Shown piece by piece: positions 3,807 to 51,618 of a DNA stretch of 64,000 nucleotides. The translations under genes were made by a program, and so were the position numbers. Origin of the DNA: Yuukianura sp. NJ FZ-2021 (lineage: Eukaryota); contig CM102290.1 in assembly GCA_046563655.1 (NCBI GenBank), positions 13,702,001-13,766,000 of the forward strand. Reading direction: 5' to 3'. The notes beneath the pieces are model-generated. The model ran no database searches, was not told where the DNA came from, and saw nothing but the letters and a program-made list of their open reading frames with translations. Position 1 is the first letter of the stretch, and the number at the start of each line of letters is the position of its first letter.

Positions 3807-4028
3807 AATGATCAGAATTCAGCTGACATTTTCATTGTTAAAAAAAAAGTGGAAATTGGCGCAGATCTTAATGTATACCCTCTCCCTCCACCTTCCCAAA
3901 TTCCGATTGCTAAAAGAGTTGAAACAGGAGTTTTTAGAGAGGAAAAAGGAAAGAAAGCAGTTTACAACAGTTGTAAAAAGAGGAAAAAGAGAAACAAAGA
4001 GAAGAAAAACGTAAAGTTTGGAGCTTAC

Positions 4029-7000
4029 CTTGCCGAAGCAACTTCGTTTATTCATTGAAGCTAGGGCGGCAGCTGCATTATGGTGTTCTGCAAACTCTAT
4101 GAAGGCATACGGATCACCATTAGGCTGAAAAGACACAAGAGAAAAAAGGAATTTATTAGAGTCTGGACTTGACTGTTTGGGCTCGGGCAGCAAAGGGAAT
4201 AAACAAACATCTTTCTCCCATTAAGGGCTCCCAATGAAAGTGGCCTCGGCAGCACAAACTATGTGGCGGGAAAGTTCAAGTCCCCGGGAATGTGCACAGA
4301 ATTAGGAGCGGAAATGCTTTTCCATTTGGATTTAGCAGAATCGTAGGAAAGAGACATTTTGTACCAAGCTATAACTCCGGCTCACTTCAAGTAGCGTCAG
4401 CCATATTGTCAAATGATATTTACATAAACAGGAAGAAGACTGCGATTACGTCCGTATGCATCACTCCCTGGAACGCTAGTTCCCGCCATTCTAATCCGCA
4501 AACAAATGGGCTCTCTACCTGATGCAGCCAATATTTCTTATTCCTCGGAGACTCTGCACAGCCACATGCTATTATCATCACCCACATCCCATTATTACAA
4601 AGGACCAGAAAACCTAACCAACCGAATTTTCAGATCCACCTTCTTACATGTTACACAAATTCCCACGACACAAACACAGTCATAATCCCTCAACTTTCAA
4701 AACCCACGCAAAAACACACAAACATCAAAATCAAAATTCGATTCAAACGCACTTCACAAAAAAATTACAATGAAAGATGCTTCCAATCCGAAAATGTGTT
4801 TGTCAAAAAATTTATAATTTGTATATAGAAACAAACATACCAAATTTGGCAAATTACCAGACAGACAGACAGACAAGGTCAAACCAATAAAGTAGCTTTC
4901 GCTAATTAATAATTAATTAAAAATAATAATGATTTGGCGTGGTTTAAAAAACAGGGCATTTGTAGTTGCAATTCCGTCTCCATTTTTTTCAATTCAGACT
5001 TTCAAAATACAAAAAATCAATAAAGCTTAAAATCCTAAAAGCCTAAAATCCTAGTTTAGTTCGGAACGAAGGTTCTTACACGCTTAAGAAAAATTCTAGA
5101 GAGAGAAAATCATCTTAACCTGTTAGCCTTCTTCTCCTTGCTACCGAGACGAGTGAAATAAAGGTTTATGTCTGTGTATAAGATGTGCAAATACTTCCAA
5201 AAGTACTCATCCCTCTTAAATCTGTGGACTCAGACTGTAGAGAAACTGACTCCAGTTCCATTTGGCTAAGGTCCTCATAGGATTATTTTTTTAACTTTGT
5301 TTACTTGTGCCAACTTGGGCACTCTCTCTTTTCAACAGAAATCGTCATATCCAGAAGAAAGAAGCAGTGGCCAAGAACCTTGTTGGTCACTCCCGTTCTT
5401 CATAGACCATTAGGCACGGACGTTTATTTCATCTTCATGATTAGGAGCAGAAGCATAGTGGATACAAAGTGAAAGTGGAATTGGAACTGATCAAAGAGTC
5501 GTTAGGAATTGAAAAGCCAAAGCAGCTTCAATTCCCCATTCCATTTAACCCCTGATCTACATTTCCACAAACAATTAACTTTGTCCTTAATTTCACCAAC
5601 TTTTATCTCCCCCCGGCTTAGAGTCAACTCCTTAACATTTGGAGCTTTCTCCTGCCACTTCAAAGGGAGAAAGTCTAATGGAGAGCACTTGGTTCAATAA
5701 AAAGGAAAGTAGACTGGAGAGAGATGTCTGCTATCTCTCTGATCAACTATAAATATTTCAGAATCACAAGCCCTTAAAGCCCCATTCAAAAAAAGGCTCC
5801 CCCTTTAGCTTCTTTCTGAAGGAAGAAGAAGGCAGGAGTTGCATAAAACAGGAAAATATCCATTGGAGGCAATAAAAGAGAGAGAAATCTCCTTGAAAAG
5901 AAGACGGTTTTGGCACTACAAATTCAAGACCTGTGAATAAATTTCCTATTTCCCCGTTCCCTCTCTACAATATTTCCCACTTTTCTCTCTGAAATCAAAC
6001 CTTCCCTTCCATTGAAAGACATGTAGCATTGGGAGAAAGGAGTGGCCCTGCATACCAAGTGGGTCTCAATCTGCCTAAAGGGTCCCTAACTGCCTCACCC
6101 CCACTCAACTACATTACCTTACCTACACTCATGCATCTTCATCTCACGACAGATCTACACTCACCTCCAAATCTCGTCCATTCCCCACTTCCAACAACCC
6201 AATTTACCTCAATGGACTTCCAGTCCCACCATGGACCCACGAGGTGGGGCTCCAATCAAAACCAGATCCAAATCCCATCTGATATTCCTATTCCAACCAA
6301 TCACACAAATCCCCGCTTCCCGGAATTTCCCAAATCCACAAATTCCCGCCACTCTTCATTTGAATTCGACAGTCAAATTCTGTACAGTCAACAGAAAACG
6401 ATGACATAGGACCGTAACCAGTGTTGCCCAAGGTTGTTTAAATCGAAATTTTGTTTCTTTTTTCTTAACAAGTTATACCATACTTATTGAGTTCATGTTA
6501 GCAGTTGAAAGTAGTAAAAGTAGGTTGGAGTGAAAGTGTCCTTGGCAATGGATTGCCCGCTTTTCCGCCGACAGTCACCAAGCTAACGAAGGCTAAAGGC
6601 TTCTCTGGGTTGGAAAAGAACATGAAAAAGTTAAGGACAGGATGAATGGTTCCTAAGTCTTGTGGAAAGTGGAGGGGAATCCAAGTTGAAAATATACAAA
6701 GAGCATTGGGAAGACGAAGTAAGATGAGGAAATGGGTCCGTATACATCATGCAAACGAAAAGGCCTTTGAAAGAAGAGGAGAAAGCGGACCCAAAAAATC
6801 CTCGTGCCAGAAATTCCACTTTTTCCTTAACAACTTTCCCCATACAGTCTCGCCTTAAAACATCCAACACCCAAATCCTAGGACTAGAGACAATATTTTA
6901 GCATACTCAAAACTCAACTTTCTCCCAATCCAACTTCACCTCTAGGAGCCAAAAACCCTCCTTTCACCACCCTCCTCCTTTCAACAGTAATTCTGAGCAT

Positions 7001-10000: not shown

Positions 10001-13000
10001 GGACTCGTGGCGTTAGGTTCGTAGGGAGAGGAAAGTAAGGCATTAAAAAGTGAAAGTGAAATACAAGTGGGTTAAGGCGCCAATATGAGCAGAGCAGATG
10101 CTACTACGAGGGGACCCCCACACATCCTCCATTACTTTTCATGTTACCACTTTCACTAACTCTCACTTTCACTCGATTAGAATCACTCCCTCTGTTCCAA
10201 TTGTAACCAAGTTCACAATTTCCCATTTTCTCAACAAACGAAAAACATACTTAATCAAAAAAAAAATTCACAATCCAAAATCTATTTTTTACCAGAACGC
10301 GCTGTGATCTCGCTGGGGCTCCGCCGGAGAACCACTCAATCGTTGCTATTTTATTAGAAAAAGTTTTGATTTTCTTTTTAACGCGATTTACCAATTTTGA
10401 AAAAAAAAACACTGAAAAATAATTTTTGAAAACGAATAATAATTTTAAAAGGAATTGAGTTTCAAGATTTCGAGTAGAACGATAGAATGGGTTTGGCGCC
10501 GCCCCAAAGAGCATGTGCAGCATTCTCGTCCCAACAAAAAAAAACGAAAAAATGTTTGTTTAAATTTCAATTGTGGAACATTAGCGTAAAAGTGAGCCAA
10601 ATATTGAAAACAAACTTCAAATTTGCACATGCACATAAACATCAACTTTTGGATTAAAAACACTCGAGAAATGGAATGACGAACATACTAATTTAACTAG
10701 TTTCAAGCATCAGTGAACCCAAATATAGCAGAAAAACTTCTTCTTTTTTGTATAACGAATGCAATACTCTGAACTTGAACTTGTGCGTAGTAGTGAGACT
10801 TTAAAATGAAGAATTCGCACCAGCATTATCGTCTGTAACACCCCTCAGCGTGAACATAGGGTTAGACTGACTTATTTGCTCTAAAAGATTGGATTTGGCC
10901 TCTAATCCGGACACAAAAGGACAAAAGACATCAGAGAGTATGTGTATGAAACTAACTTTCACTTTTCACTTTTCCCGCAAGAAGGAAAAGAGAAAGCCTT
11001 TCACTGTGAAATTTCAAGAAAAAACACTTTAATATACTAGGAAGTTAACTTTGGGGATTTAAAGTTTCAGTCCTCACATGCCCTACAACGCTGGAATTCT
11101 GCAGCCTCCTCCCTGTTCAAAATCCTGCCAAAATGTTGTATATATTTCGCAGTAGATTAGCTTCATTTTTACAAGTAATAACCATTACTCCTCCCTGCTC
11201 CACCGTCATCCCAAGTTCACACACAACCTCCAAGTATTTCTTTCCTTTCAACACGAAAGGCCCTGCACTACTCCAGCACAACGATAAAAATCAGTTACAG
11301 TCGAACCTCTCATTCTCCAACACGCTCTGATTGGATGATTTGAAAAAAAGAGTTTTCGCGGCTACAGTACGGTTCTAAATTGTAACACCATTGAAATCTG
11401 AGATATAGCATTTTGGTTTCTTTACAAGTAAAATCCCTCCAAAAATTTAAGTTCTACAGTATATCGCTGCCAGGAGAGGCGGAGCCCAAAGTTGCACAAT
11501 GTGAGGATCTACTGTAGTACAGTCGAACCTCTCATTGCGCGTTTTGCTTTCTTTACAAGCGAAATCCTGTCAAAAATTTAAGTTTTACGGTATCCCGCCG
11601 TCAGGAGGGGCGGAGCTAAAAGTTGCACAATGAGGGGTTCTACTGTATACACACACGATTTTCCTTCTTTTCCGGATTCTCATACTAAAAACAAACTTGC
11701 ATCAAAACAACATCTTTTCAATTTCAAAAAATCAAGACTTTAAAAATTTCAATTATTTCGCTTTTCACTACATTTGAAAACGGAATTAAACGAAAATGTA
11801 ACACATTGAGCGGAGGACGAATTACTAGGTCAAACATTGACCCAGTGGGCACCAACCCATTGTTTTACACATCGTTAGCAGGTTGGCCCTAATTATCACA
11901 TCTAAGCACCGACTGCACTTCACAGTCAGTGCAGAGCAGAGGTTTGCACCGTAGCTAAACCAACCGTCCCAGCCTGCCACTCATACTTCCTTTTCAAAAA
12001 ATTTGAAACAACTCTCGGGGAAATACTAATTACTCCACGTCACTCCCGTTTTACTTTTAAACCTTTTGAAGCTGAGAGCATCAGAAAAAAGAGAGTTTTC
12101 AAACGGAATGAAAGGGATACCAAGTGATCTGTGATGATGAGTGAAATTTAATATGCTCCCTTAAGCTCAGGCCCTCAATCTGTTCTGAGTGGGAAACAAT
12201 AGAAAGCAGATCACGATGAGATGATCATCACACAAAAGGCTCTTGTCCTCCTTCCGCCTACGAAACTTAACCCAGAGCCAGCGGCAACTTTTTCAAAAAC
12301 AAAAAACGAAATTATTACTTACGCCTGTCACTGTGTCCAATTCAAAACGGAGTTTTAAGGCCAATTGGGCAATTGCCAAAGAAAGTAAAAATTAAGCTCA
12401 ACCAATACTAAAATGGAACCATGTCAATCAGTCCTACTGCCGCGCACAACTCTAGCCGACCCCCCTCAGTTCCGTAATTACAAAGTGGCGGGAGTTTTAG
12501 TCTCCAAAAATGGAAGAAAAAGCTCCAGCTTCTTTGAAAAAAGTGGAAAACGTTAGTTAACTTCTGATGTTTGACGTTGACTTTCCCATTGGGCGGTAGG
12601 TTCTGTCGAATGTTTGGTTGACAGGCTGCGTGACTCTTTGAATTTAGTGGAACTCTGGATCTCGAGCCCGTCCAATTTTACGTGTGGCGTCGACGATAAT
12701 ATTCTTGACGAAAATGAAATTTTTGATCCTCGGCGTGCTGGATGCGACCTCCCGTCAGTTGATCCTGTCTCCTCCACGTTGTCCAATTCACCACTCTCCT
12801 CCTTGATTCGGAACCACTGACTCTCTCCGTAAGTGACAGCATTCGGATCCACAGACTTGGGTGTCGTAGCAGCTCCTCTCACTTTTCCCTCAGAAGAGCC
12901 AACTTCCGGGAACTTCCCACGCCAGGATTTGAAACTAATCCGGCCAGATTCAAATCCCATTTCTCCGTTCTGCGTCTTGTCGGGGGTTGTCCCTGCCATC

Positions 13001-16000
13001 TCAAGGTTCCTTGACAACGAAAAATGAATTTTAACAGGTTGAGTCAGAGAGTACTCAACGCGATTTTCTACGTTTATCTCTAGACTGTCTAAGGAAAATT
13101 AAAATTCTTTGGGTTGAGTACTACCTCGATTGTTGTCAATAAAAAACAAACAAACATTGGTACCAATTCGTATGTAAAATTTAAAAAATTCGGCTGTATT
13201 GTTATGACTACGATACCATGAAACAAGATTGCTATAGCGACCATTTATACAAGTGCCGTAAGAGGTTATGTCATAACTCCGATTTAAAAAAAAAAAAAAA
13301 CAAGAAAAAACAACTTTTGTACGACTTGTGTTTCGTGAATAATACTCAAATCGTCTGGCTTGAAAATTTTGCTTTGAATTTTTGAAAATTTGAAATTTGA
13401 AAATTCACATTACTAAAGCAACAAAACCGCGTCAGGGTAGTGCAGATGTGCGGTTCAAAAAATTTGAAAAAAAAAAGAATAACGGAGTTATGACATAACC
13501 TTATAAGAAAAATTAAACAAAATTTCAATTTAAACAAAGTTGCCATGAAATGAAAGACACTCCTTTTTTGCAAAATCGAAAAAACTTGAAGTACTATTCA
13601 ACCTGTTAAAGAAAATGAAAGTCAACAAACCTTGCTGCCAGCTCATCTCCTCCTCCCGCCCCCTCCAGCAACTTTCTTTTGGCCAGCATGGTCGGAGGGC
13701 GACGTCGCCTGAATTGTCGCCTATTTAAGGCCGTCATGGTCGTCGCCGCTGTGCTTGTGGTCGGTGCGACTGTTGAAGTTGGTGGCGCCCTCTGGCGGTC
13801 GTAAATCCGCTCAACTCCGTTTTCAAAACTGCCTCCTCCGAATCTAGTACTTTTGGGAGTGTTGGAGTCACTTGAGTCATCTTCCGACAGATCATCTTCC
13901 GTCATATTTTTTAAAACTAATGGTTTTGGATGTGAATAAGCACTTCTGGGTGAAGTTTGTTCTAAATTTTGCGTAGCTGATGGACGCACCGTGGACCTTT
14001 TTATCTCTAGTCCCAATTGAGTCTGTAGTCCCGTAGTCCCAGTGTGTAGTCCCATCTTCTGTTTATGGAGCCTATAGGGATGCTCCAAAGATCCACTTTC
14101 TCTTTCCTTCATTTTACTCCACTTTGGTCCAAGAGTGTTGTGCAGATCAATGTCAAGAATGGGCGACACCGTAGCAACCAATGAGTACTCTTGGAGCTCA
14201 GACGTCGAAAAACTTGGTTTATGATCAACGGATTTGGATTTTTGAAGAGCGGGAGTCGTAGACTGGAACAAATTTTGGTTTAGCACTTGCGGTTGAAGGC
14301 TGGATGAAGATTTGTAATTGTCAAGTCCCTCTGCACTTCCTGTTTCAGTGCTAGACTCAAAGTATTGTGGAAGGCGGTAGAGTTTGGGTGAACTTCCGGA
14401 TGAAGTCCCCCCCTCAGAAGGGGGGACTTCATCAGAAGCTGGGATTCCGAATAAGGGCCCCCCATTTCCCCGAAAGAATTCGTCCATAAATCCTCCTCCT
14501 GCGGATTGAGTTGCTTCGGAAGATTCAAAAGGAATGTGATGCTCCATGCTACCGGCAGCGGCGGGTGTGGAGCCCGCCGGATTCTCTGTCGGTTGAAATG
14601 AATTTTTGAGAGTAGCATCAAGGGAATTCCGTTCCTGTGTCCCACCAAATGAATTTTGTTGTTGTAGGAGAGGAGAGTCGTACATTTGGAGTGGAATGGG
14701 TTGGGGTGACTGTGATTCTTCAAGTAGGATTGGTCGTAAATCATTCATAAACTCCATAGGGATTCGCTCATATTCATTACTAGCGTAGGCTTCTAGGTTC
14801 ACATTTTGATTCTGAACTTGGAAGTTGGAGTGACCTTGACCTTGGTCACTTTGCTGGGCGGGTGACCTATAGTTGATGTTTTCTACCGGCGGACTCTGGA
14901 TTGGAAATCTATTTAGACTTCTCGGAGTTGTTGATCGGTCAGATAAAAAAGAAGCGGGAAAAACCGAATTCGAGTCCAATTCGCCTCCTGGCGCTTGATT
15001 TTGAAAATTTTGAAACTCTTGGCTTCGGACAAGCGGACTGTAGGGAAATGGGTCCGAGGAGTCATGGAAACCGTTGAACATGGTCTGCGCATGCGCATGT
15101 TCATGATTTTGACGGCCATTTTGGATATTCAAAAAGTTAAATGGTCGGTTGCCATTGGTTTCACGGTAGGCATTATTTTGAGTTGTGCCGAGAGACGAGT
15201 AGGGTTGATTGTAATTTGGCTGGTTGTAGGGGTCAGGGTACTCAATTGGGGCGGGATTGTGGCGGGTGTGGGTACTTGGTTGATGGTGGGTACTTGGCTG
15301 ATGGTGGGTACTTGGTTGATGGTGGGTACTTGGTTGATGGTGGGTACTTGGCTGATGGTGGGTACTTGGTTGATGGTGGGGCATGTGATGTATGACATGG
15401 GGCTTAGAATTGGGCATGGTCATAAAAGATACTGGATTGTGTCCACCATTGGACGGACTTTGAGTAAATCCAGGTGGAAAATAAAAGTCATTTGGATGGA
15501 CGTTATTGAATGGAGCTGACGGCGGGATCGGCGGAGCCTCCGTTGTGCTGGCCTGACTTTGATGTTGTTGGTGGCTCTGTTTTGGTCGTTTTCTTCTTGG
15601 TGGGGCTCTTTCTGCATCTTCAACTGTGTGAAACGGCCGTTGTTGAAGTCCATTTTGCCTTGACCCGCCCCCGTGCGTCTCTTTTCCAGGCGTCTGAGCT
15701 GGAACGGTTATGGGCACCCGTGGAACGGCTCGCATTTGATCACTTCCAAATCCGTTCATAAAGTTAGGCAGAAATGAGAATGGCGGAGTGGACTGGACAT
15801 GAGATGGTGGTGGCTGACGAAATGAGGGACTGTATGTCTCATTTCCCACGTAAGTGGATGATGGATGAGCATGGTGGGGCTGCTGTGGTGGCTCACTCTG
15901 ACCTTTGACCTGTCCAGACGCTGTTTGTCCAGGCTGACGATACGATAGGACATGACTCAATTGGTCTGCATTTACAAATCCTTCTGGTCTCCTTGCCTTA

Positions 16001-19000
16001 ACTTTCACTCGAGTTCTCATTTTTGGATTCTTCTGAGGAAGATTAGAGTGATGCGCCGCAGATGAGATTCCGTTGGAGTGGTGCACCGCAGATGGGATTC
16101 CGTTAGGCGAAAATGTCACTTTTGGCAGAGTGTCGTGTCCCAAACCTTCAATTTCAGGCTCATTACTTTGAAATGATGCATGAGGCTTCACTTTTAACTT
16201 GGGCCTACTTATTTTGAATTTTGAGACTAGTTGTGGTGAATCCGTGGCTACTTCATTGCCGTTGGCAGGGGAGTCACTTGGCTGTGGGGGGCCCTTGGGC
16301 CGGAACTTGGGAAAGCCCTTGTGCGGCCTTTCTCCTGGTGGAATCTCAGCAATAGTAAAAGTGTTTGGGCGTTCAGCTAAGAAGTTCGGTGGGATTCTGT
16401 AGGTTGTGGATGAAGATGAGTCGGTGGGACGTGGGACCGTGACGCCTTGGTGCTCTGAGTATTCGGGCATTAATTTTATGCCACTCATCGGCTTCAAGTG
16501 TCTCACATTTTCTCGAAACAGAGTCGGCAGCATTGGACTTTGTTTCCTTGCGGTGGTCCGAACGTATGGCTCGGTCGTTTGAAAATATTGTTCGGTCGCA
16601 GAGGTTTGTTGGCTGAAAGGTTTGGCGATTGGTTTCCAGCCAGAATATGTGGGAGAAAGGTAACCATGCTGATTGGTTCCCATGTCAACAGTTGCCATGT
16701 CAACAGCATTCGGACGTTGGACCAAATTTGCCGCAGGACTTTGAAACTTATGATCTGGCGGGTGTCGGACAAGATGTGGAGAATGCTGGAGCGTCATTTG
16801 TGTTGGCCCGGAATGCTGTAGCGTCATTTGTGTTGGCCCGGAATGCTGTAGCGTCATTTGTGTTGGCCTGGAATGCTGGAGCGTCATTTGTGTTGGCCCG
16901 GAATGTTGGTGAAAAGTTGGAATTTGCTGAACTTGTGGCTGTGGGTTTCTGTAGCCAGTAGTTGGGTGATTTGCTGGACGATGCATTGGTGGGAATTGGG
17001 TGGGGTCACGGTGGCGCATCATATGTGGTGGATGTGGCTTGTAAACACGGTTGTGGAGATGCTGGAACGCGGCGGTGGGATTGTAATGTCTCGTTGGTCT
17101 TGGTCGTGGGCGGAGTAGTTGTGGCCTCGCATTCCAAAAAACGCCACACACGACAAACGGAATAAGCCACCCCGAAATTACAAAAATCTGTCAACAACAA
17201 ACCAGTTTTTATTAACTCATCCAAAAATTAATTACATTTTAAAATTTATTTGTAAAAGAATTTTTCATTACCGTAAAAATCCTCATGGCTGCTTTGTAGA
17301 GTCACATCCACTTGTTATTTCAAAAGTAAGTTTCCATTTATGTTTTTCCCGCCACTTTTGCACTTTTTGTAACTTCAAGTTCACTTTATGCGTGTACGTT
17401 TCACTTTTAATTGTAAACAAAGAGAATCCGGTTTCTATGCTTTTCACTTCAAAAAACTTTCACTCCTTTCCTCAGTTTCAAACACAAACAAAATGAGAAT
17501 GTTGAGAAATACTAAATCGGGATGCGGGAAATATAACAAAAACGCGGGAAATAGTAAATTTTTAAATTTTTTAAGAGAATGTAAATTTTTTTTTGAATTC
17601 AAAACTTCACAATTTGGAATCTTAAAAAAACTAATTGACTAAAATTTTGGAATTAAGGTAGTACGTTAGTGTTGAGACCCCTCACAAGACTAAACCCAAT
17701 GTTTTTGGACTCTCTGAATTTTATAGGACAGATTGAGGAAATCGAGGCACAGGGCCTTGTTGAGTAGGCCATTAGTCGAATCTCTCAAAGATTCACTCTC
17801 ATCATCCTTCTTTAGATTCATTAAAGTGGATCAACCCGGTGTGGTGGTAGAGCCCACCGTGTTGGTTAAGGGGAAGAAAAAAGTAACATTTGAGACCATG
17901 TTGGAAAATGCAGAAAGAGGCATAAAACCATGGTTTTTTTTAAAAAGATTTCCGCCATGTCTTGCACACTTACACTTGTCCCCATAACTTTCATCTTTTG
18001 TTACCTTCAACAGTTGGTAAAATCTCTGAGAAATGACAAAAACACCAATTCAATAAATCGAGTGTACAAAAGTAGCCACAGATTAGACTGAAATTGCGAA
18101 CGGCTTACAATGGTGAACCTTACTACACTATAGTCATGGATTGCAAATTTAAAAAAATTTGACCTTTGCCCCGGAAAAAGTTGACCCAACTCAATAGTGA
18201 GCATTCCAAGGTCACTCGGTTTCGGTCGCCTTTGAAACCACGGAATTTTGAGCCAATTACGAGATAATTGCCGCTGACAGGCAGACAGACATGGCAAGGG
18301 CAATGCATAAAGTAGCTTTCACTCCTGGCTAACCAGAGCCGATCACGGCATTTTCCAGCTTAATAAAGTTTAAAGTAAAAACTAACAATATTAAACAAAA
18401 AGTAAAAGGAAACGAAACTGGTGGTAAAAAAAGGAACTATTCGTATGATGATGACTGCAATTTAAATTCTTTTTTGACAAAGATTGCTTGTACTGTGAAA
18501 CCTACTGACACTAAAATGAGATGTGAATTTTTGTTACACCCCGCAGGCACTTACTTTCTGGGGTAAAAACAAAAATTACAAAAGTTGGATGCTTTTGCTC
18601 AATTTTGAATCCAACAAATTCCTCACAAAAATCACACCTTTTCAATATTTCATCTTCATATGAAAAAAAAACCTTACTACAAAGCTTTGACTACCTGTCC
18701 AAAATCAGTTCATAGGGGAAAAAGTTCATTAAAACCGGAATACCAATTTTTTCAAAAAAAAAAATTGAAAAACAAATCAGAGACATCGTAAACTACGATA
18801 GTAAGACTCCCCCGGGGGATTTAACGCTTCGCAGAATTCCGTCAAGCAACGCCTTGTTACTTTTGGCGTCAAACACACCAAAAACGCTTTCATTCCTTCT
18901 CCGCTTTCTCAATTCACTAAATTAGTACTTTTTCACGTCATTTGAAGTTAAAAGCTGTTTTACCTCGTGGTAGGACAGGGTGACCAACACGACATTGACC

Positions 19001-22000
19001 ACCAATTCTCTTTTTAGTGTCTGCTTGACCAATTGCAAATGTTAAATTTCCCTCCCCCAATTAGTCTCATCTCATGGTTCCAATTGAGTCCAAGTAATCA
19101 GTGGACTAGAATAGTAATTAGCACTCAATCTGCCAATCACATAAGCTATGGCCCATGCAATCACGATGACACAAACATTTTTGTCCAACCCCAAACTTAA
19201 TTCTGCAATTAGTCAATGTCCGCTTCAACGTTTTCTTTAGCCCTGGTAGAACAACCATTAGGCAAGGTTCCTATATCAACGAAACAGTTTTCCTTTAATA
19301 GGTTAGCCAATAAGTCCTTTTGTCGAAAAATCTCGCCAAAACATTTTTTTTCCTCCAATTTTCCTGTAAAGGAAGGCACGGTGAAGCAAGTTTTACTAAT
19401 TTTTTAACAAAACTAAAAATGTTCTAGTTATTGCCTAACCCGTTGAAGAAAAAACTATTTTCTTCTTTACAAACCTTGACCATCAAGCGTAATTTGTTAC
19501 ACTGTCCAAAATTCTAACGTTCTCAAAAAAAACTTCGACTTGGGCATGATAATGAGCAGTGATATCAAAAATATTTAGTCTCCATACCCACAACGTTGAT
19601 GTTAATAAAAAAAAATCGGGCTTTTTGTTGCGAAATATTTTTTTATGCAGTTTTTTAAATTGCAGTAATTTTAAACAAGTCAATATTTGGAAGATTTTTC
19701 TTTTAATACTTTCTTTGTGAATATTTTTGGCGTTTTTAGGACATATTTTTGACAACCCTGAGAATGAGTTTTCAATCATCTCAAAATTTAACTAACCGCG
19801 ACCTGCCACGCGTTGCCACTGGCAACCTGTCTTCGAATTACCATCCAAGAACAATGAGTAATTATGAATTTGTATCTCAATATATGGTCTGAGGTGTGCT
19901 AGAAAGTCAAGTCCGTCGCCCGGGGAAATGTCAAAATCAGTTTAAATGGGCATGGTGGGAGTCTGTCTCAAAACAATAGATGCACCCTGGGTGAGTACTT
20001 TCAGTTGTGAGGAAAAGGCGTAGGCTATGGTGGCAACACGTACTGAAGTGGAGACTGCCAGATCGACATGAATCTCGATTCCAAAGGCTGTCAAGGGTGG
20101 AAATGAAAACGGACCAATTATTGGTGCTCCTCGACCAGAAGAAAAGTAGAGGATGAAGATGGAGGAAGATGAGACGGAGGAAATTTGAAAATAGAAAACA
20201 ACAAAAGGCACGGAAAATTGAGAAGGAAAGTTGATAAACAAGAAATTAAAGTTTTTGATTCGCCTGAGCTTTTCCTTTCTAGAGCAGAAGAAGAGGAACG
20301 CGTAAGGAAGCTACAGATTGATTATTTGATTACTTCACGCAGTCAGTTTCATTTCCACCTTCCTTATTTCCAAAAGCATTCAAACATTGATTCAGTCGTG
20401 AAGCCTACTTTATGCATCTACGTTGTCTGTCTGTCCGTCTGTCTGTTCGTCGGCGGCAATTATCTCGGAATCAGTTCAACATTTCCTGGATTACTTTAGA
20501 GTGAAGACTAAAGGTTGCTCCCTATTAAATTTCATCCTGTTGGGTCAACCCCTCTCGGGTCAAAGGTCAAGGTCAACCAACTTCATATCCTGGCCTGTAC
20601 AGAAGTTTTACGTATCACGGAGACAAGCAACTTAAGTGAATATCGTGTCACCCATAAACCAAGGTTGGTATAGCAGTCATTTATACAAATACCGTAGCAG
20701 GTTATGCCATAACTCCGATTTTTTTTTAAAAAGCACAAAGAAACAACTCAGATGTCCGGTTCAAAAAATTTGAAAATTTGAAAAAAAAAAAAAGTGTTAT
20801 GGCATAACCTGTTCAGAAAAAACAAACACAATTTCGATTCAAACAACCTTGCCCATAACCCTTTCAAAAACCATAGCAGATTATAGTAGTTCACCAATGC
20901 CAGTGTGAGGAGGCCGTGGTTCACCATGGTGTGCCGTTGGCTACAGCAGCGTAATCTTTCGCTACTTTCGTACCTCCATTTTACGACCGCTCTATTCATC
21001 CTCGAGGCCTTTTCAAGTTCTCTTTTGTATTTTCCAATTCAATGAACCGAACACACAAACGCATACAATTTCCAACTTCTTTTCGCCAAAAGCGAATTAG
21101 CACCAACACCAATCTCCTTTTTACGAGATAATTAGCCTTAAAATCCGCAACCCGATCATCGTTTCAAACAACATTAGTCCATTCATACAATCCAAACCCA
21201 TACATCCCCTCAAATCCAACTTTCTAACTTCATTTTCAAAGTGGACTTGACTTGAAGAGCGAGACGTAAAACGTTTAAACGAATAAATCCAAATAAGCAG
21301 AACGAACAACCTTGCACAGGAGTCCATCCCTAGTCAAATGGAAAACGGACGTTATAATTTCATGCTAGAACAAACAAGAGAGAGGATCATCGACGCGCTA
21401 ATTCTAAATACAATTAATCCCACCGATTTATCCCATCAACCCTAACCTCATCCCTCACACTGCCCAAAATTTGAAATCTCACAAAATATTACAGTTTATG
21501 CCACTTTTCTATGATTTCTCCCCACTTTTTCCTCTTGAGGTTTAACAATTTCAGGATCCGTTGAAGTGATCTCTACTATAAAGTAGAATTCATTTTCGTT
21601 TGGAAGTTTTGAAGCAAGTGCTAGGAAGCTGCAGGAGGTTTTTAGTAGTTGGAACTCTTCTATTATTATTACTACCTTCTCGTCGTAAACATTATTTAGA
21701 GGGCACAATAAAAACAGAGCTACTTAGTAGGTCGTAGAGGAGAAGATTAATGTGCGAGAGAGAAAATTAAAGTACTTTGGTCCATAACTCAACGCACTCT
21801 GTCGCACCCTATTTTATACGACTAGCATAAGGATGGTCTCAACCTTACATTGTGCAAATCAAATAGAAAAATTCAAATCCGGGCAGGGGATTAGGAAGAG
21901 TTCCACAATTAAGTAAACTAAGAGATTTTTGTAACAAAGTTGTTTGACTTACCTCTTGTATTATTTTACATCCTTTGACTACTCCGAGTTGTGAAAAGAG

Positions 22001-22693
22001 AACTAGCAGAAATTCTTCAGTCATTTGAGTGTTTAGATTCCCGACGTACCTAGGAAACAAAACCAAGACAATTAGCATTCCCTTCATTCAGGTGTAGGTT
22101 AATTTAGTTGAAGAACATTGACCGATGGTACGGTACCAAGTCATCAAGGTAGGAAAAAAACATAGGCCGAATCATATTGGGACACCTCATCATCCGGTAT
22201 GGCTTCAATACATAGAAACCGACCGGGTTCAAGCGTTCCATGATGCCATTGTGGCAATTGAAGAGCAGTTGAACTGCTATTGTGTCAACTAGAATTGTAT
22301 CAACGTCCAATCGTGTCAACAGCTACCTTGTACCAACGAGCCTAAGCAAACTTAACACACGTTGGCTTGATTAGTCGTTGATGACACAATTGACTCGTCG
22401 ACATCATTCAGTTGACCTCACAATGGCAGTTGATCCAATTCAGTTGACACAATGGCAGTTGATCCAATTCAGTTGACACAATGGCAGTTGATCCAATTCA
22501 ATTGACGCAATGGTTAGAATAGGTTGATGAAGAGCCAGCTGATGGAGAACTTCGGTGGCATCGGATACCGAAGTTTGAGAACCGAATGCCCATTTTGTTT
22601 TGAACCTTGATGACTTGGTACGAATTTTGTCGCATAACGTAGTAGCTCATATGTTTCTTACAAAGTCTTTGGCTGCGTCTCTTCCCCGAACAT
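4029..22693 (-). CDS. TIA1: TIA-1/TIAR (Rox8-like) RNA-binding protein, 5' part (RRM1); coding exons 22693-22662, 22049-21953, 4124-4029; continues beyond window start
   Basis: Spliced translation MFGEETQPKTL|YVGNLNTQMTEEFLLVLFSQLGVVKGCKIIQE|PNGDPYAFIEFAEHHNAAAALASMNKRSCFGK matches the TIA-1 N-terminus and RRM1 (PKTLYVGNL; DPYxFxEF; AAAALAxMN). All junctions are GT-AG with compatible phases (2, 0). The next expected exon (EMKVNWA-like) is not found in 1-4028. Symbol is family-level (TIA1/TIAL1/Rox8). Confidence 0.93.
6429..6480. mobile_element. CAAGG MITE family C, terminal fragment
   Basis: caaggttgtttaaatcgaaattttg matches one end of 51384-51618. Confidence 0.6.
7240..7400 (+). mobile_element. 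DINE-1/HINE-like dispersed repeat
   Basis: aagtagcgaaag, ttgacctttgacc, gacagac tract. Confidence 0.55.
7431..8304. mobile_element. ~870-bp foldback element with ~400-bp inverted arms
   Basis: Left arm 7431-~7830 mirrors right arm ~7875-8304; each arm contains a ~60-bp palindrome centred on GAATTC. Confidence 0.88.
9270..9445. mobile_element. Small foldback/MITE with ATGGACGG subrepeats
   Basis: atggacgg repeats on the left, ccgtccat repeats on the right. Confidence 0.55.
11298..11645. mobile_element. Two adjacent Tc1/mariner-type MITEs (11298-11514, 11520-11645)
   Basis: TA|cagtcgaacctc...gaggRtYctactg|TA termini with TA duplications. Confidence 0.82.
12553..17286 (-). CDS. Nested secreted low-complexity Pro/Gln/His/Ser-rich protein, ~1342 aa; exons 17286-17272, 17187-13631, 13009-12553
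   Basis: 3.5-kb open frame. A 15-nt first exon (gcagccATG AGG ATT TTT ACG|gtaat) joins in phase 0 to cag|ATT TTT at 17187, giving the signal-peptide-like MRIFTIFVISGWLIPFVVCG. The downstream ORF 12553-13009 is in frame once the MITE at 13002-13634 is removed. Inclusion of the last exon depends on the inferred MITE-derived intron. Confidence 0.85.
13045..13111. mobile_element. 67-bp mini-element nested in the family-A MITE
   Basis: Absent from other family-A copies. Flanked by a perfect 8-bp TSD ggttgagt (13037-13044, 13112-13119); ends cagaga...tctttg. Confidence 0.7.
13224..13542. mobile_element. CAAGG MITE family C nested in the family-A MITE
   Basis: Perfect 8-bp TSD ccatgaaa (13216-13223, 13543-13550); body similar to 20660-20851, 37761-38046, 51384-51618. 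Confidence 0.9.
15270..15377 (-). repeat. Coding 18-bp tandem repeat x6 (HHQPST)
   Basis: gggtacttggYtgatggt repeated six times inside the nested ORF. Confidence 0.95.
16781..16908 (-). repeat. Coding 30-bp tandem repeat x4 (GPTQMTLQHS)
   Basis: gaatgctgKagcgtcatttgtgttggccYg repeated four times inside the nested ORF. Confidence 0.95.
18063..18323 (+). mobile_element. DINE-1/HINE-like dispersed repeat
   Basis: gtacaaaagtagc ... gacagac ... atgcataaagtagctttc. Confidence 0.55.
19263..19478. mobile_element. CAAGG MITE family D
   Basis: caaggtt...aaaccttg with subterminal aggttagccaataa/ttattgcctaacc; degenerate 9-bp TSD accattagg/accatcaag. Confidence 0.8.
20398..20590 (-). mobile_element. 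DINE-1/HINE-like dispersed repeat
   Basis: Reverse-orientation copy: ctactttatgcat, tgtctgtctgtccgtctgtctg, ggtcaaaggtcaaggtcaa. Confidence 0.55.
20660..20851. mobile_element. CAAGG MITE family C
   Basis: caaggttgg...caaccttg; TSD cccataaac/cccataacc. Confidence 0.85.
22419..22513. repeat. 29-bp tandem repeat x3 in TIA-1 intron
   Basis: cacaatggcagttgatccaattcagttga repeated three times plus a partial copy. Confidence 0.9.
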
Positions 22694-24368: not shown

Positions 24369-27300
24369 CTAAATGATTTCATTTTGATAAACAGTGCATT
24401 CTGGGAGGTCATCGTCCCAACTACAAATGCTTACAGTGGAATTCCGTGGTGTACTCTGCGGAGTTTCAATAAATTCTGGAGCACGAATCACGTGAAGGTA
24501 TTCCTGGAACCAAGTAGTGAAGTGCAATTTTTAAGTTCAAAATTAGTATTTGGCATTACATAATATGATTAATAATTTACAATTCCCCGGGAAGCTTCAA
24601 GAATACGGTGAAGGTCAATCACGAGGTCATCGAACGTTGGGCGTGCAGCGGACATCTCATGCCAACAATCTCTCATGATCAAATACCTTCCAAATTAATC
24701 AGTCCATATTTACTCTAGGTATATTTTCAATTTTGGGTTGAAGTAAGCGTGGGCTCCCCTCCTGTACCCACTTGTTCAAGTTTTCATGCTTCTCTAAATA
24801 TACCTATCGGATGGGTACATTTGTAACCACCACATTCCAAGACAGTAAATGTACCCATCCGATGGGTAGAATTAGAGTAGCACGAAAAATTTGAACGGCT
24901 GGGTACAGGCGGGAAGTCCAAGTTTATTTCAACCTAATTTTGTGTTTAAAAATATTTGGCGCCTTACAGGTCCGTTGGGCAGTTTGCAGGTTGTTCCATA
25001 CGTTCACCACTATTTAGTAGGTCAAGGAGCTTGTTCACGTCTGGCAAAGAAGGATAAGGTGACCCGCCCAAGGTCACGATTTCCCACAGCACAATTCCAA
25101 ACGACCATCTAAACAAAATCTTGACTTCATTTGAAAAACAGACAAGTTTAATACGCATGCGTGTACAGTTGGACTTACACGTCTGACTGTGACGTGTAGA
25201 TGCGATGGAGCAGTGTTTCTGGAGCCATCCATTTTATCGGAACGCGACCGTCACTCTTTTTCCTGTAGTAGTCGCAGGTCATGGTGCGTGCCATGCCGAA
25301 GTCAGCGATTTTGACAACCTTGCCAGCACAAACCAAGATGTTTCTAGCCGCCAGGTCACGGTGGACATACTGAAGTATCAGTAACAAGTATCAGTTCATT
25401 ACGGTTTTACATTAACAGAAAACAAGGTTCCTTGACAATAAAAAGGTAATTTTCTTTAACAGGTTAAGTATTACCTCAATTGTTGACAAAAAATGAAAAT
25501 CCAAATCCAAAAAAACTGTTACCAATTCGTATGAAAAATTTAAAAAACTCGGCTGTATTATGACTATGATACCCTGAAATTACAGACACTCCTTTTTGCA
25601 AAATTCGAAAAAAAAAAAAAACATGAGGTATTACTCAACCTGTTAAAGTAAATTAAAGTCAACAAACCTTGACCAGAAAATACGGATAATTTTGTTGGTA
25701 CCTTTTTGGCACTTAGGTGACTCATTCCCTTGGCAACTTGGTAGGCAAAGGACATCAGGTCTGAGAAATTCAGAGATTCGTGTTCGTCCGTAACCATGGC
25801 AACATCATCTGCCTCTGCTCCGGAACTTTGTCTATTCAGTACAAATTGGAGTCTTTTGCGACGAAGATAGTCACGCAGATTCCCTTCGGCAGCATACTCC
25901 ATCAACACCAGCAGTTCACCGCCAGTACTGCAGCATCCCAGCAGCTCAATCACATTCCCATGTTTACCAATTTCTTTCATAATTTCCATTTCGGACAGAA
26001 GATCAATCAAGTCATCATCCGTATGTGTCTCTATCACGTAGTGTCATTTAAAAAAAAGAAGTTCATTTTTACCATTTATTGCTATGTATGCCAAGCAGTG
26101 TTCCCGGTTTCGGTCACTTTTTCCAATTTTGGTCCGAAATGTACGAATGCTTTCGGACGGACGATCGAAATGTCCAGTGACTGAAACCGGTAACGCTGTT
26201 GACATGGTTTTACCCAAAGTTCGTAAACAAAAAAAAAACTTTTTCTACACCAGGTTGTCCAATAGCTGGAAGTTTTAAAATTTGTTTGGCAAAAATCTGT
26301 CTTGCTATGGTAATTTTTTGCATGTAAATGGGATTGGTGCAGAAAGTTGTTTGAAGTAAGATTTTTGGAAACCCTGAGGCATTGGACAACCTGTTGTAGG
26401 AAATACATTTTGTTGTATTTTGGTTATCAAGGAACCTTGGTTTTACCTTTGAGTGATTTGACGGCCACAGTCGTTTGTAGTCCAGGTTCCAGAATTCCAG
26501 TGGCAATTCCAAGGTGGACTTGGCCGAATGCTCCTTCACCCAACTTCTGACTGACGACGAGACATGTTCGGTCAAACTCCCAAGCCAAATCGGCTGGAAA
26601 GTAGTACTCGGGGCCATCGTCGTCCATTTGATAGTTTTTGATTGTAACCGTCGGAGGAGACATCTAGAAGGAAGAATTTTAGAATATCAAAATTTTTTTT
26701 TAAAATTTGGTCGATATTTCGAAAAGATATTGACCAAGCCAATAATTTTTCGAGTTGCACAAATTGAAAGTGTTACCGTAAAACCGTCGTCACTTTTTAC
26801 TTCAATTCGCTCAATTGTTACGACTTTTGTCCAGCGCTCGGGTTTTCTCATTTCGTCCAAAATAGCATCCCTGGAAAGAAATGAAAAAAAAAAGTTGTAT
26901 TAATTTTTTTTTTAAATTTTCTAAACTGTTTTAAATTACTCTCTGGATCTTCGGCGACTGTCCAGTACAAACCACCACCCAAATAAAAGTGCCACAATTA
27001 GCACAATGGCCACCGTAGAACCAACTACTGGAACAAGAATTTTTGAAAGAAGAGTCGAATTTCTGTTGACCTCTGCAATTAGTAGTCCAAAGTGACCAAA
27101 ATAATTCAAAATCTGCTTTCGAGTGCTTTCTCCAAAACTTTTTAGCTTACTCCGCTGGACAACTTTGAGGTAGAAAGTGGCAGTGGCTCTTCCGACGCTG
27201 TTTCCAACTATGCAGCTATACCAACCCTCGTCAGATGTCGTAACTTTCTCCAGTCGCAGAATGTTACCAGTGTCGTCACCGGTTGCATTGGCACGAGACT

Positions 27301-29173
27301 TTTCGAAAAAAACATGATTAATTGACTTTTAATAAAAATAAAAAATATCGTAACAAATAAAAAAAATCGGTGAGACAGACAGACAAAGCCGTATCAATAG
27401 TCTCCACAAGACTAAAATTTCGCAGAAAATCAAAAATTCAAAATTTCGAAAATGAAAATATCGTACCTTGATGGTAGTTACGTTTTCATAGTTTGAGTCA
27501 TCATGTCTCATCCACTCAACCATGTACTCTGGATCACTCAAAATGGACAATCGAAACTCAATGTCGTCTCCCATGCTGACAGTTGTATTTTCCGGACCAT
27601 CCACAATGACCGGCTTGGTGTAAGTTCTTGCTAAAGTGTCAAAATGACAACATTATGAATTAGGATAGTTGAAGATGACATGGATTAAGTGTGCTAACGT
27701 GCGACATCCAAGCGGATAGAGTAGTCCAGAGTCCCTGCGACATTGGTCATGCGACAGACATAGGTCCCTTGGTCCTCTGTCCCCAAGTCCTCAATTACCA
27801 AAGCACTTGGCTGTACTTTATGGCGGTAATTGGGCCTCAGCTCAGCCCCATCCTTCAACCAAAGGACTTCCGGCCTTGGATTCCCTAGGAACACACAAAT
27901 TTATGGTGTACTTAAGGGCTCCGTACTTGTCCAGTTGACACTTCCTTGGAGACAGTCCTATGTGTCTTCGACTGGTCCCAGCGGAGCTGGAAGTTGGTGC
28001 AGTCAGGGGTGTGCATCCGTCACCGTTTTCGGATTTTGACGGATTTTGATTAAGAATTCCGGATTTTGGATTTTGACGGATTGTGATTAAGAAATCCGGA
28101 TTTCGGATTTTGGCAGATTTTTATTTTTTATAATAGATTTAGGTAATAGATTTTTATTAAATCCAGATGTAGATCCTATGGGAAATTCATAGCGGATTTC
28201 AGAATGCATAGCATTTCCCATCAAATTTTTTTTTAGTTTTTCAATTTCAAAATTTTCGAAACAATGTCGGTTTTAAACATTTTGCAGTTCTCGACGTCAA
28301 TTTTTCAATTGTCCGCACCTTGACCAAAAATCCGTCAAATCCGGATTCCATTTCATTGAAATCCGGATTTGGAAGAATCCGAATCCGTCAAAAATCCGGA
28401 ACAAAAATCCGGATTCACACCCCTAACAGTGTGCTGTTACCTTTGGCGTGACAAAAAAGCATGGCAGTTCCCCCAACGTATTTGAGAATAAAGTGAGACA
28501 TCTCCTTTGTGTTATTCAAGTCGACGCAAATGTATGAGTCGTGTCTGGGATCCGATAAGTCACTTTCCACGACAGCACAGGAAGTGGCTCCCTCCAGCAC
28601 TTTCTCTTCCTCCTCAGCCTCGTCGTAGTCCATGAGAAGATGTTGTGCATTTTTTAAACGCTTATCTCCGACGTCGATTCGAATCTGCCTAGTGAAGCTC
28701 CTCCAGCGACATTCATATGTTCCACTCTGTTCCAGCTTCGCTCCAATGAGCATCAAGCTGCAAATCAACATTTAGGCATAGATGGACAATCAAAGGTAGA
28801 GACATAAGCCAAGTGACAAAAGAAAGGTCAAAGGTCAATTCTTTTACTTGGAATTTGATAGGCGAGTGGAGCCGGTGCTTTTCTTCAAGCGAATTCCATC
28901 TTTGAACCATTGGATTTTCGTGTTTGGTCCAAATTCATTTAAAGCTCCACAACTGACTTTCACCGTCTCTCCTTCTGTTATGTTCAAATGGATTGGCCCT
29001 TGGTCATCCAAATCTAACAAAGCAAATTATGAAAAATATTTGAACAAAAATTTTGAAAAAATGAAAATTCAAAAAATATACTCACCTATAACAAAGTCCG
29101 GAATAACAGCTGCACTTGTGTAGAAAATTGAATTCAAAGAAATCAAAATGACACTCAAAACCAACTTTTTCAT
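24369..29173 (-). CDS. FGFR: Fibroblast growth factor receptor (3 Ig domains, acid box, TM, split tyrosine kinase), ~804 aa, 14 exons
   Basis: Exons 29173-29086, 29013-28848, 28757-28441, 27884-27699, 27630-27467, 27298-27151, 27072-26940, 26870-26777, 26663-26447, 26030-25702, 25369-25179, 25108-24968, 24686-24581, 24503-24369 join in frame (2415 nt, all GT-AG). Features: signal peptide [21 protein letters not shown], acid box [106 protein letters not shown]-terminal EYL. Confidence 0.95.
24737..24933. mobile_element. Hairpin MITE in FGFR intron 12
   Basis: ~85-bp imperfect inverted arms (tcggatgggtacattt / aaatgtacccatccga core). Confidence 0.75.
25423..25671 (-). mobile_element. CAAGG MITE family A in FGFR intron 10
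   Basis: Same termini as 13002-13634; 9-bp TSD aacagaaaa/accagaaaa. Confidence 0.9.
26215..26439. mobile_element. CAAGG MITE family B in FGFR intron 9
   Basis: Perfect 8-bp TSD gttttacc (26207-26214, 26440-26447), which includes the exon 9 splice donor. Confidence 0.9.
28004..28425. mobile_element. TIR element with CGGATT subrepeats in FGFR intron 3
   Basis: caggggtgtgcatccg...cggattcacaccccta; many cggatt on the left and aatccg on the right. Confidence 0.75.
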
Positions 29174-37760: not shown

Positions 37761-38046
37761 CAAGGTTGTTCAAACTGAAATTTTGCTTGTTTTACCTTTA
37801 CAGGTTAAACCATAACTCCTTTTTTCAAATTTTTTGAACCGCACATCTGATGCGACTCTGTTGCGTCTCGAAATTCGAAATCAAAACTATGACTCACCAA
37901 CGTGGAAATTAAAAAATTTCAAAAAATTATTGTGAAAATAAACAAAATTAGCACAAGAGTTGATTTTTTCGTGTTTTTTTTTTAAATCAGAGTTATGGTA
38001 TAACCTGTTATACGCATTTGTATAAATGGGCGCTATAGTAATCCTG
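37761..38046. mobile_element. CAAGG MITE family C
   Basis: caaggttgttc...gctatagtaatcctg; degenerate TSD gtgaagaaa/atgaagaac. Confidence 0.8.
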
Positions 38047-42841: not shown

Positions 42842-42930
42842 CAAGGTTTCTTGACAACCGAATTGTATTTCCTACAACAGGTTGTCCAATAACTCGGGGT
42901 TTACAAAAATCTTCCCTCAAACAATTTTCC
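42842..42930. mobile_element. CAAGG MITE family B, truncated
   Basis: Matches the first ~90 bp of 2136-2331. Confidence 0.7.
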
Positions 42931-49083: not shown

Positions 49084-49295
49084 CAAGGTTCGTAGACAAA
49101 AAAAAAATCTCAACACCAGGTTGTCCAGTAACTCGAAGTTTTAAAATTTGTTTGAAAGTAGGAACATTTGACTTTCTATGGTAATTTTTTGCATGTAAAT
49201 GGGATTGGTGCCGAAATTTGTTTGAAGTAAAATTTTTGAAAACTGAGTTATTGGACAACATGTTGTAGATTAGTTGTAGATTAGATGCTACCTTG
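49084..49295. mobile_element. CAAGG MITE family B
   Basis: Perfect 8-bp TSD gggaaagt. Confidence 0.9.
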
Positions 49296-51383: not shown

Positions 51384-51618
51384 CAAGGTTGTTTAAAGCG
51401 AAATTTTGCTTATTTTTTCCTAACAGGTTGTGCCATAACTCTTGGTTAAAAAAATGTTTGTTTTGATATTTTATCTGCAAAAGATCAACTTGCGCCATGT
51501 AAAGCAAACACAATTCGTACAAAATTCCTGAAAATTTTTTTTCGTAATTTTTTGAAAAAAGTGAGTTATGGCATAACCTGTTAGCGCATTTGTATAAATC
51601 GGCGTTATAGCAACCTTG
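51384..51618. mobile_element. CAAGG MITE family C
   Basis: caaggttg...caaccttg; TSD cattttac/cattttaa; sits between two copies of a ~65-bp direct repeat (agcctgtcacgttagtt...). Confidence 0.88.

Follow-up and report, generated by a model that had tools for sequence, protein, structure and literature searches.

An apparently old miniature inverted-repeat transposable element in a coding exon of Yuukianura sp. NJ FZ-2021 as a candidate transposon-derived intron

Introduction

Transposons inserted in exons can be spliced out of transcripts through cryptic sites at their termini, as in the maize Ds and dSpm alleles, and the Introner elements of Micromonas and Aureococcus were reportedly recognized by Huff et al. 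in 2016 as transposons resembling miniature inverted-repeat transposable elements (MITEs). Here we describe a 633-bp MITE with CAAGG termini (13002-13634, minus strand) that interrupts a long coding exon in a 64,000-nucleotide stretch of the Yuukianura sp. NJ FZ-2021 genome (assembly GCA_046563655.1, contig CM102290.1, forward-strand positions 13,702,001 to 13,766,000), referred to as a whole as the window and numbered from its first nucleotide, and whose termini contain candidate splice sites for a new intron. The maize alleles are similar in being single exonic insertions of elements with terminal inverted repeats (TIRs) that are partly or wholly spliced via near-terminal sites, restoring some gene function; they differ in being recent mutant alleles with leaky and often imprecise splicing, whereas the insertion described here appears to be old and is possibly fixed.

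In Gozashti et al. 2022 (PMC9860276), Aureococcus Introners are described as carrying both splice sites and as adding 12 nucleotides (nt) that code for 4 residues, with 4 nt contributed by the element and 8 by the duplication. The mechanism proposed for the Yuukianura element would match this published class (Aureococcus-type Introners, PMC9860276): in both, a DNA element with TIRs and a target site duplication (TSD) sits in a coding exon with both splice sites just inside the element, and the element bases and the duplication together form whole codons, with 4 + 8 = 12 nt in Aureococcus and 12 + 9 = 21 nt here. However, the Aureococcus Introners reported there are present as many near-identical intron copies and were compared with element-less orthologues, whereas here there is one exonic copy, known from DNA alone, in a family that is old, diverged, and variable in its TSD length (8 or 9 bp). 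The Micromonas and Aureococcus elements are summarized as MITE-like transposons in a second source (PMC11282704). They share with the Yuukianura MITE the form of a short nonautonomous DNA transposon predisposed to removal from pre-mRNA, but in their case one site is supplied by the element and the other is made in the duplication, leaving the mRNA unchanged, whereas both candidate sites of the MITE at 13002-13634 lie within the inverted repeats and the duplication would stay in the mRNA.

Among animals, the 2022 survey reports Introners in only two groups, both marine, the tunicates and the copepods, and the ocean genomes with Introner families in its supplement bear Oikopleura and copepod (Lepeophtheirus) labels (PMC9860276). 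For another tunicate, Fritillaria borealis, noncanonical introns derived from MITEs have been described (PMC11282704). As portrayed in these sources, the Oikopleura, copepod, and Fritillaria cases are alike in having animal hosts and MITE-like elements acting as introns; they are unlike the present locus in belonging to marine tunicates and copepods and in having many copies per family, and the Fritillaria introns are noncanonical, whereas the candidate sites here are canonical GT-AG. A literature search found no relevant title on Introners in springtails or other non-copepod arthropods.

Results

A MITE within a coding exon

The minus strand of the window contains a 1194-codon open reading frame (ORF; 17190..13606), followed by a downstream ORF at 13098..12556. 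In silico removal of the MITE and one copy of its TSD gives one frame with 1182 open codons on the left and 149 on the right (the 6-kb flank sets an upper bound on the left-hand count), and the other five frames at the excision junction are open for at most 79 codons on either side; the exon was thus continuous before the insertion. Downstream of the element, 148 codons are open from position 12999 to a stop codon at 12553-12555 (minus strand), as seen in the sequence and in the ORF list. If the element is retained, the frame meets a stop codon at 13606-13608 (minus strand), nine codons into the MITE, and the protein is truncated. On the sense strand, the MITE lacks an AATAAA, and the polyadenylation-like hexamer nearest to the downstream stop codon is an ATTAAA at 12152, some 400 nt beyond it.

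The plus-strand termini of the MITE are CAAGGTTCCTTGAC and GTCAACAAACCTTG, and its sense strand reads CAAGGTTTGT...GTCAAGGAACCTTG; the inverted repeats are approximately 45 bp long, starting CAAGGTTCCTTGAC and CAAGGTTTGTTGAC. It is flanked by a TSD whose upstream copy in the sense direction lies at 13635-13643 (plus strand CTGCCAGCT) and whose downstream copy lies at 12993-13001 (plus strand CTGCCATCT), the two being identical at 8 of 9 positions. A 14-base TIR motif is found at 21 places in the window with at most one mismatch, compared with a mean of 0.27 and a maximum of 3 occurrences in 100 shuffled sequences. BLAST and alignment delimit a family of nine copies in the 64 kb (family A), two of them partial, with a unit length of 218 to 259 bp. 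The family has the TIRs, TSD, small size, lack of coding capacity, and many copies that characterize MITEs, and 8- to 9-bp duplications flank five of the six copies that have both ends (three of 9 bp and two of 8 bp). The CAAGG ends and the 8- to 9-bp duplication suggest that family A may be hAT-, Mutator-, or Merlin-like. An earlier note on this DNA had described a MITE with CAAGG termini and a 9-bp TSD, a continuous frame on its removal with one TSD, and a truncated protein on its retention, and all three descriptions are borne out by the sequence and by the TIR and family alignments.

The 633-bp length of the MITE includes nested inserts. The larger is a 319-bp MITE of a second family (family B) at 13224-13542, which has the perfect 8-bp duplication TTTCATGG on its two sides (13216-13223 and 13543-13550). 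Three further family-B copies are present in the window (near 20660-20810, 37766-38046, and 51389-51618) and match the nested element piecewise at 73 to 100% identity. A 19-bp perfect inverted repeat (13263-13501) is internal to the family-B MITE; it was considered as a third nested element and rejected, as both of its flanks recur with the repeat at the three other loci. The smaller insert is a 67-bp segment (13045-13111) with a perfect 8-bp direct repeat, ACTCAACC, at 13112-13119 and 13037-13044; it has no other copies in the 64-kb window, and it contains acceptor-like AGs that compete with the terminal one.

Candidate splice sites at the MITE termini

The sense strand of the MITE begins CAAG/GTTTGT and ends GTCAAG/GAACCTTG, where the slashes mark candidate splice borders. 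A putative intron using these borders (13010-13630, minus strand, donor AAG/GTTTGT and acceptor GTCAAG/G) is 621 nt long, and splicing it would join the large coding exon (13631-17187, minus strand) to a last coding exon (12556-13009, minus strand) that comprises 8 nt of TIR, the 9-nt duplication, and the original C-terminal coding sequence. The coding sequence built with this intron is 4029 nt long, a multiple of three with only a terminal stop codon, and includes the predicted junction peptide and seven extra codons; the scar consists of 4 + 8 nt of the repeat and the 9-nt duplication, 21 nt altogether. The splicing arithmetic proposed in the earlier note, a 621-nt intron removed in frame to leave seven codons, is thus correct.

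The proposed mechanism is the conversion of an old insertion of a nonautonomous TIR transposon into a spliceosomal intron. Transcription of the interrupted gene (the host gene) would run through the MITE, and U1 would recognize AAG/GTTTGT, four bases into the 5' inverted repeat. A branch site about 35 to 40 nt upstream of the 3' end, either CTGAC or TACTCAAC, would direct splicing to the first AG beyond it, the AAG eight bases into the 3' inverted repeat. Removal of 621 nt would leave 21 nt (7 codons), and translation would go on for 148 more codons. We infer both the occurrence of splicing and the choice of sites, and we give a rough probability of 0.45 to the reading that an old exonic MITE insertion is spliced out and that the gene still reads through. 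Splicing with the exact pair 13630/13010 is put forward more tentatively, as a possible choice of sites.

The candidate sites were compared with 11 introns inferred in the window from springtail FGFR homology and frame continuity, ten of them in an FGFR-like gene and one in the host gene. The FGFR-like gene (approximately 24400-28000) has its best match in a springtail FGFR (51% identity over 115 residues), followed by spider FGFRs (50%), which points to an arthropod-like animal, and its assembled frame is open throughout. By this comparison, the candidate sites fall within the range of the inferred ones: the donor shares 6 of 9 positions with the U1 consensus (5 to 7 of 9 for the 11 inferred donors), and the pyrimidine fraction at the acceptor is 0.65 (0.45 to 0.95 for the inferred introns). 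AAG acceptors are found at 2 of the 11, preceding the exons that start at 27298 and 24686; the earlier note had pointed to these two, and the homology-inferred borders that yield the uninterrupted FGFR frame confirm them. In the opposite orientation, the donor of the MITE is poor (GTTCCT) and a pyrimidine-rich acceptor is lacking.

The region between the branch-like CTGAC and the terminal AAG contains no AG in the 13002-13634 copy. In all eight other family-A copies an AG precedes the terminal AAG by about 25 nt; this copy lacks it through a 4-nt deletion. The loss of a competing AG fits with selection for the terminal acceptor, although it is a single event.

Age of the insertion and decay of the downstream frame

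The insertion looks old because its TSD is mismatched, because it differs by 9.5% (22/232 positions) from the consensus of the nine copies in the window, and because it contains two nested insertions, each flanked by a perfect 8-bp duplication; the mismatched TSD and the two later insertions were the signs of age on which the earlier note relied, and both are evident. The nine family-A copies are each 7 to 16% from the in-window consensus, their pairwise identities are 73 to 85% in a star-like pattern with no recent pair, and mismatches affect 6 of the 43 duplicated positions in the five copies with readable TSDs.

Neutral decay of the downstream sequence was simulated with 3000 replicates per setting, and the frame was scored as open if at least 140 codons remained so. 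At a divergence (d) of 0.095, the frame is open in 19% of simulations without indels and in 3 to 8% with 0.05 to 0.15 indels per substitution. Splicing is favored because an open downstream frame is a 3 to 19% outcome under neutral decay at the divergence of the MITE, and if the apparent age of the insertion is correct, the open frame counts as moderate evidence for continued translation of the C-terminal part. If the C-terminal part is still translated, then the MITE must be removed from the mRNA.

The host gene

The host gene has a 5' coding exon at 17272-17286 (minus strand), consisting of an ATG (at 17286) and four codons that start a signal peptide, and an 84-nt intron 1 (17188-17271, minus strand; GTAATG...GACAG) that is predicted from frame continuity and from the N terminus of a homologue. 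The intron 1 acceptor enters the 1194-codon frame in phase, and the resulting N terminus is hydrophobic and signal-peptide-like. The large exon, read from the ORF up to the candidate donor, codes for a secreted, low-complexity protein rich in P, Q, H, S, and T.

The homologue, P0002, is a distantly related protein of 566 residues whose source is a single 2691-bp contig. It is 27% identical to the host protein over 471 columns (BLASTP, E value of 2e-16), 32% identical in a global alignment, and collinear with it from the signal peptide to approximately residue 592, with common conserved motifs; it starts at the equivalent place with a Met and a hydrophobic stretch. P0002 diverges from the alignment right after a conserved PVSFM motif and reaches a stop 11 residues on, and its C terminus looks as if the gene caller met an intron or the end of the contig. 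The two species may differ in the presence of an intron near PVSFM, the coding sequence of the window gene being continuous there.

An exhaustive HMMER search with the 1194-residue ORF gave six matches at an E value of ≤0.001, five of them on repeats only. The host protein contains near-perfect short tandem peptide repeats with units of 5 and 8 residues (coded at 15200-15420 and 16750-16900, minus strand); these account for all five nonhomologous matches, which were rejected as homologues since only the short tandem repeats of the query were matched. Residues 800 to 1190 of the upstream ORF have no homologues at an E value of ≤0.001 in a word-based search with 7999 scored candidates, and none was found for the downstream 148-residue ORF (four candidates scored). 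Neither ORF contains a Pfam family. Metagenome scans were negative for the downstream ORF and for the alignment of the N-terminal 600 residues with P0002, and neither protein nor metagenome searches gave a homologue that spans the insertion site.

The host gene is, as judged from its sequence, real: an ATG and a signal peptide are present, together with a short intron, an open exon of approximately 1190 codons, and a collinear homologue. The upstream 1190 or so codons must be under selection. The contrary reading, that the frame belongs to a pseudogene or arose by chance in low-complexity DNA, draws on the lack of a Pfam family, the highly repetitive composition, and the five of six exhaustive-search matches that are repeats only. 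However, about 1190 open codons cannot arise by chance, and the start codon, the signal peptide, and a collinear homologue with conserved motifs also speak against it; we consider it very improbable.

The host gene may itself lie within another gene. An RRM_1 domain is split over two minus-strand ORFs, at 3822-4220 (profile positions 38 to 67) and 21848-22087 (profile positions 2 to 33), which suggests an RRM gene with an intron of approximately 17.6 kb that would contain the whole host gene on the same strand.

Alternatives to splicing at the terminal sites

Several observations weigh against splicing of the MITE, or against its splicing at these sites. The candidate donor has a T at +3, where 10 of the 11 inferred donors have an A and one has a T. 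With 621 nt, the candidate is longer than all 11 inferred introns (68 to 416 nt), the three longest of which each contain a MITE. A stronger-looking, pyrimidine-rich TAG acceptor (TTTTCCTTAG) is present at 13089 in the 67-bp nested segment, out of frame, and a CAG acceptor at 13085 is in frame. Near the MITE, 18 of the 64 GT-AG pairs are in frame, so that the presence of some in-frame pair is unsurprising. The minimum-energy RNA fold pairs the two MITE ends (z = -2.5) and the centroid keeps only a subterminal pairing; in such models, end-to-end pairing could equally well mask the splice sites or bring them into proximity.

The abundance of sites is relevant to a reading in which the MITE is intronized in another way, for example with donor 13630 and the CAG acceptor at 13085, adding approximately 32 residues, or with a mix of isoforms that includes frameshifted ones. 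Both the 18 in-frame pairs and the cluster of acceptors at 13078-13089, behind a pyrimidine-rich run, would allow this. However, most of the alternative donors are poor (GTCGCC, GTTGCT, and GTTGAC), and the acceptor at 13089, the best looking of the alternatives, does not share a frame with the only good donor. Splicing through other sites has only a small chance of being correct.

The age of the insertion is also subject to qualification. The estimate for the 13002-13634 copy is built on a consensus of only nine copies, and its signs of age could be compatible with a composite, already diverged element that moved recently as a unit. For a young insertion, an open downstream frame is uninformative: at d = 0.01 to 0.02, without indels and with 0.05 to 0.15 indels per substitution, the frame is open in 32 to 81% of simulations. 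The insertion could accordingly be a recent or polymorphic allele, and perhaps a null or a hypomorph, in which a diverged composite with its nested inserts jumped lately and the frame is open for lack of time; intact TIRs would let the 633-bp composite move as a unit, and divergence from the consensus of old copies cannot date a single copy. There is, however, no sign of recent activity among the nine window copies, no pair of which exceeds 85% identity, the same nested inserts are found in none of the eight other copies, and the TSD is already mismatched at 1 of 9 positions. We rate a recent allele as quite unlikely.

Finally, the insertion is at approximately 89% of the protein length, in a region without a detectable homologue, and with this position at the 3' end a truncated protein might be tolerated. 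The MITE would then be unspliced, the protein would end nine residues into it and lose its last 11% or so while staying functional, and the 148 codons would be a decaying relic that is still open. Such tolerance is compatible with the insertion lying near the 3' end of the coding sequence, with the C-terminal half and the downstream ORF having no detectable homologue or domain and possibly being dispensable, and with the weakness of the splice signals, a GTT donor and an AAG acceptor; the frame is open by chance in 3 to 19% of neutral simulations at d = 0.095, and in more if the insertion is younger. However, an intact 148-codon frame is a minority outcome for an old insertion, and tolerated truncation would leave as coincidences the sense orientation with in-frame terminal sites, though these are not rare, and the copy-specific loss of the upstream competing AG. 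This explanation is somewhat unlikely, and splicing of the old exonic insertion is the reading that we prefer.

The CAAGG family and the Introner question

All tests on family-A copies cover the 64-kb window only. None of the eight other copies forms an intron or restores a long frame. One of them (25423-25671) shares the sense orientation of the 13002-13634 copy and lies within a 332-nt FGFR intron; it was considered as the creator of that intron and rejected, as the donor (AAG/GTACCA) and the acceptor (TTCAG) are 30 and 52 nt outside the element. The intron precedes the HRDLAARN motif, which we take to be a conserved FGFR intron position. The claim of the earlier note that this family can create new introns is therefore unsupported within the window, where the eight other copies provide no case and the FGFR copy lies in a preexisting intron.

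The element ends themselves are well conserved, the GT after CAAG being kept in seven of the eight family-A copies with that end, and GTCAAG/G in six of the eight with the other. The earlier note had also proposed to test whether the TSD length preserves the frame. It does so for the 13002-13634 copy, in which a 9-bp TSD gives a 21-nt scar and a 4029-nt coding sequence, but this does not extend to the family, as three copies have a 9-bp TSD and two have an 8-bp TSD, and the shorter one would leave a 20-nt scar; since both lengths occur, the in-frame 21-nt scar is a property of one insertion and not of family A.

Introners have been defined operationally as families of four or more introns that are similar in sequence and lie in unrelated genes (Gozashti et al. 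2022, PMC9860276), and the window does not contain four introns with whole-length similarity in unrelated genes. That family A is a true Introner family is doubtful. In the stronger form of this proposal, the CAAGG family would be an animal Introner in a non-copepod arthropod, with TIRs that encode a donor, a branch site, a pyrimidine tract, and an AAG acceptor; sense-oriented exonic insertions with a 9-bp TSD would become introns with a fixed seven-codon scar, multiple introns would have been seeded genome-wide, and the 13002-13634 MITE would be a fixed copy refined by the loss of its competing upstream AG. As a whole, this stronger form is similarly improbable.

Other features of the window

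MITEs also lie within the FGFR-like gene. A 225-bp MITE of a related CAAGG family at 26215-26439, with other copies near 2156-2331, 42861-42929, and 49084-49268, sits 7 nt inside FGFR intron 7 (region 26207-26447). Its perfect 8-bp duplication, GGTAAAAC, corresponds to the last exon base and the donor GTAAAAC, and the intron 7 donor is thus present twice, at 26446 and 26213; judging from the sequence, the upstream copy must be the one used if the frame is to be kept. FGFR intron 10 (24687-24967, 281 nt) has a weak acceptor, TTTGGAAG, with little pyrimidine tract, and it contains a long palindromic repeat that looks like another MITE; identity to the springtail protein to either side of the exon junction fixes its position. 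Elsewhere, an intronless 511-codon ORF at 55195-56727 (minus strand) codes for a rhodopsin-family G protein-coupled receptor (7tm_1, E value of 1e-69) that resembles aminergic receptors and has only generic aminergic-receptor clusters in the protein atlas.

Discussion

If the MITE is unspliced, the locus would simply be an ordinary case of a fast-evolving gene truncated by a MITE. Animals rarely gain introns, and such gains are poorly documented; if the proposed splicing is true, this would be a clean and datable intron birth in another arthropod lineage, complete with its duplication, its scar codons, and later nested insertions. It would also mean that the ordinary ends of a MITE can serve as splice sites in an animal with a spliceosome that accepts AAG acceptors.

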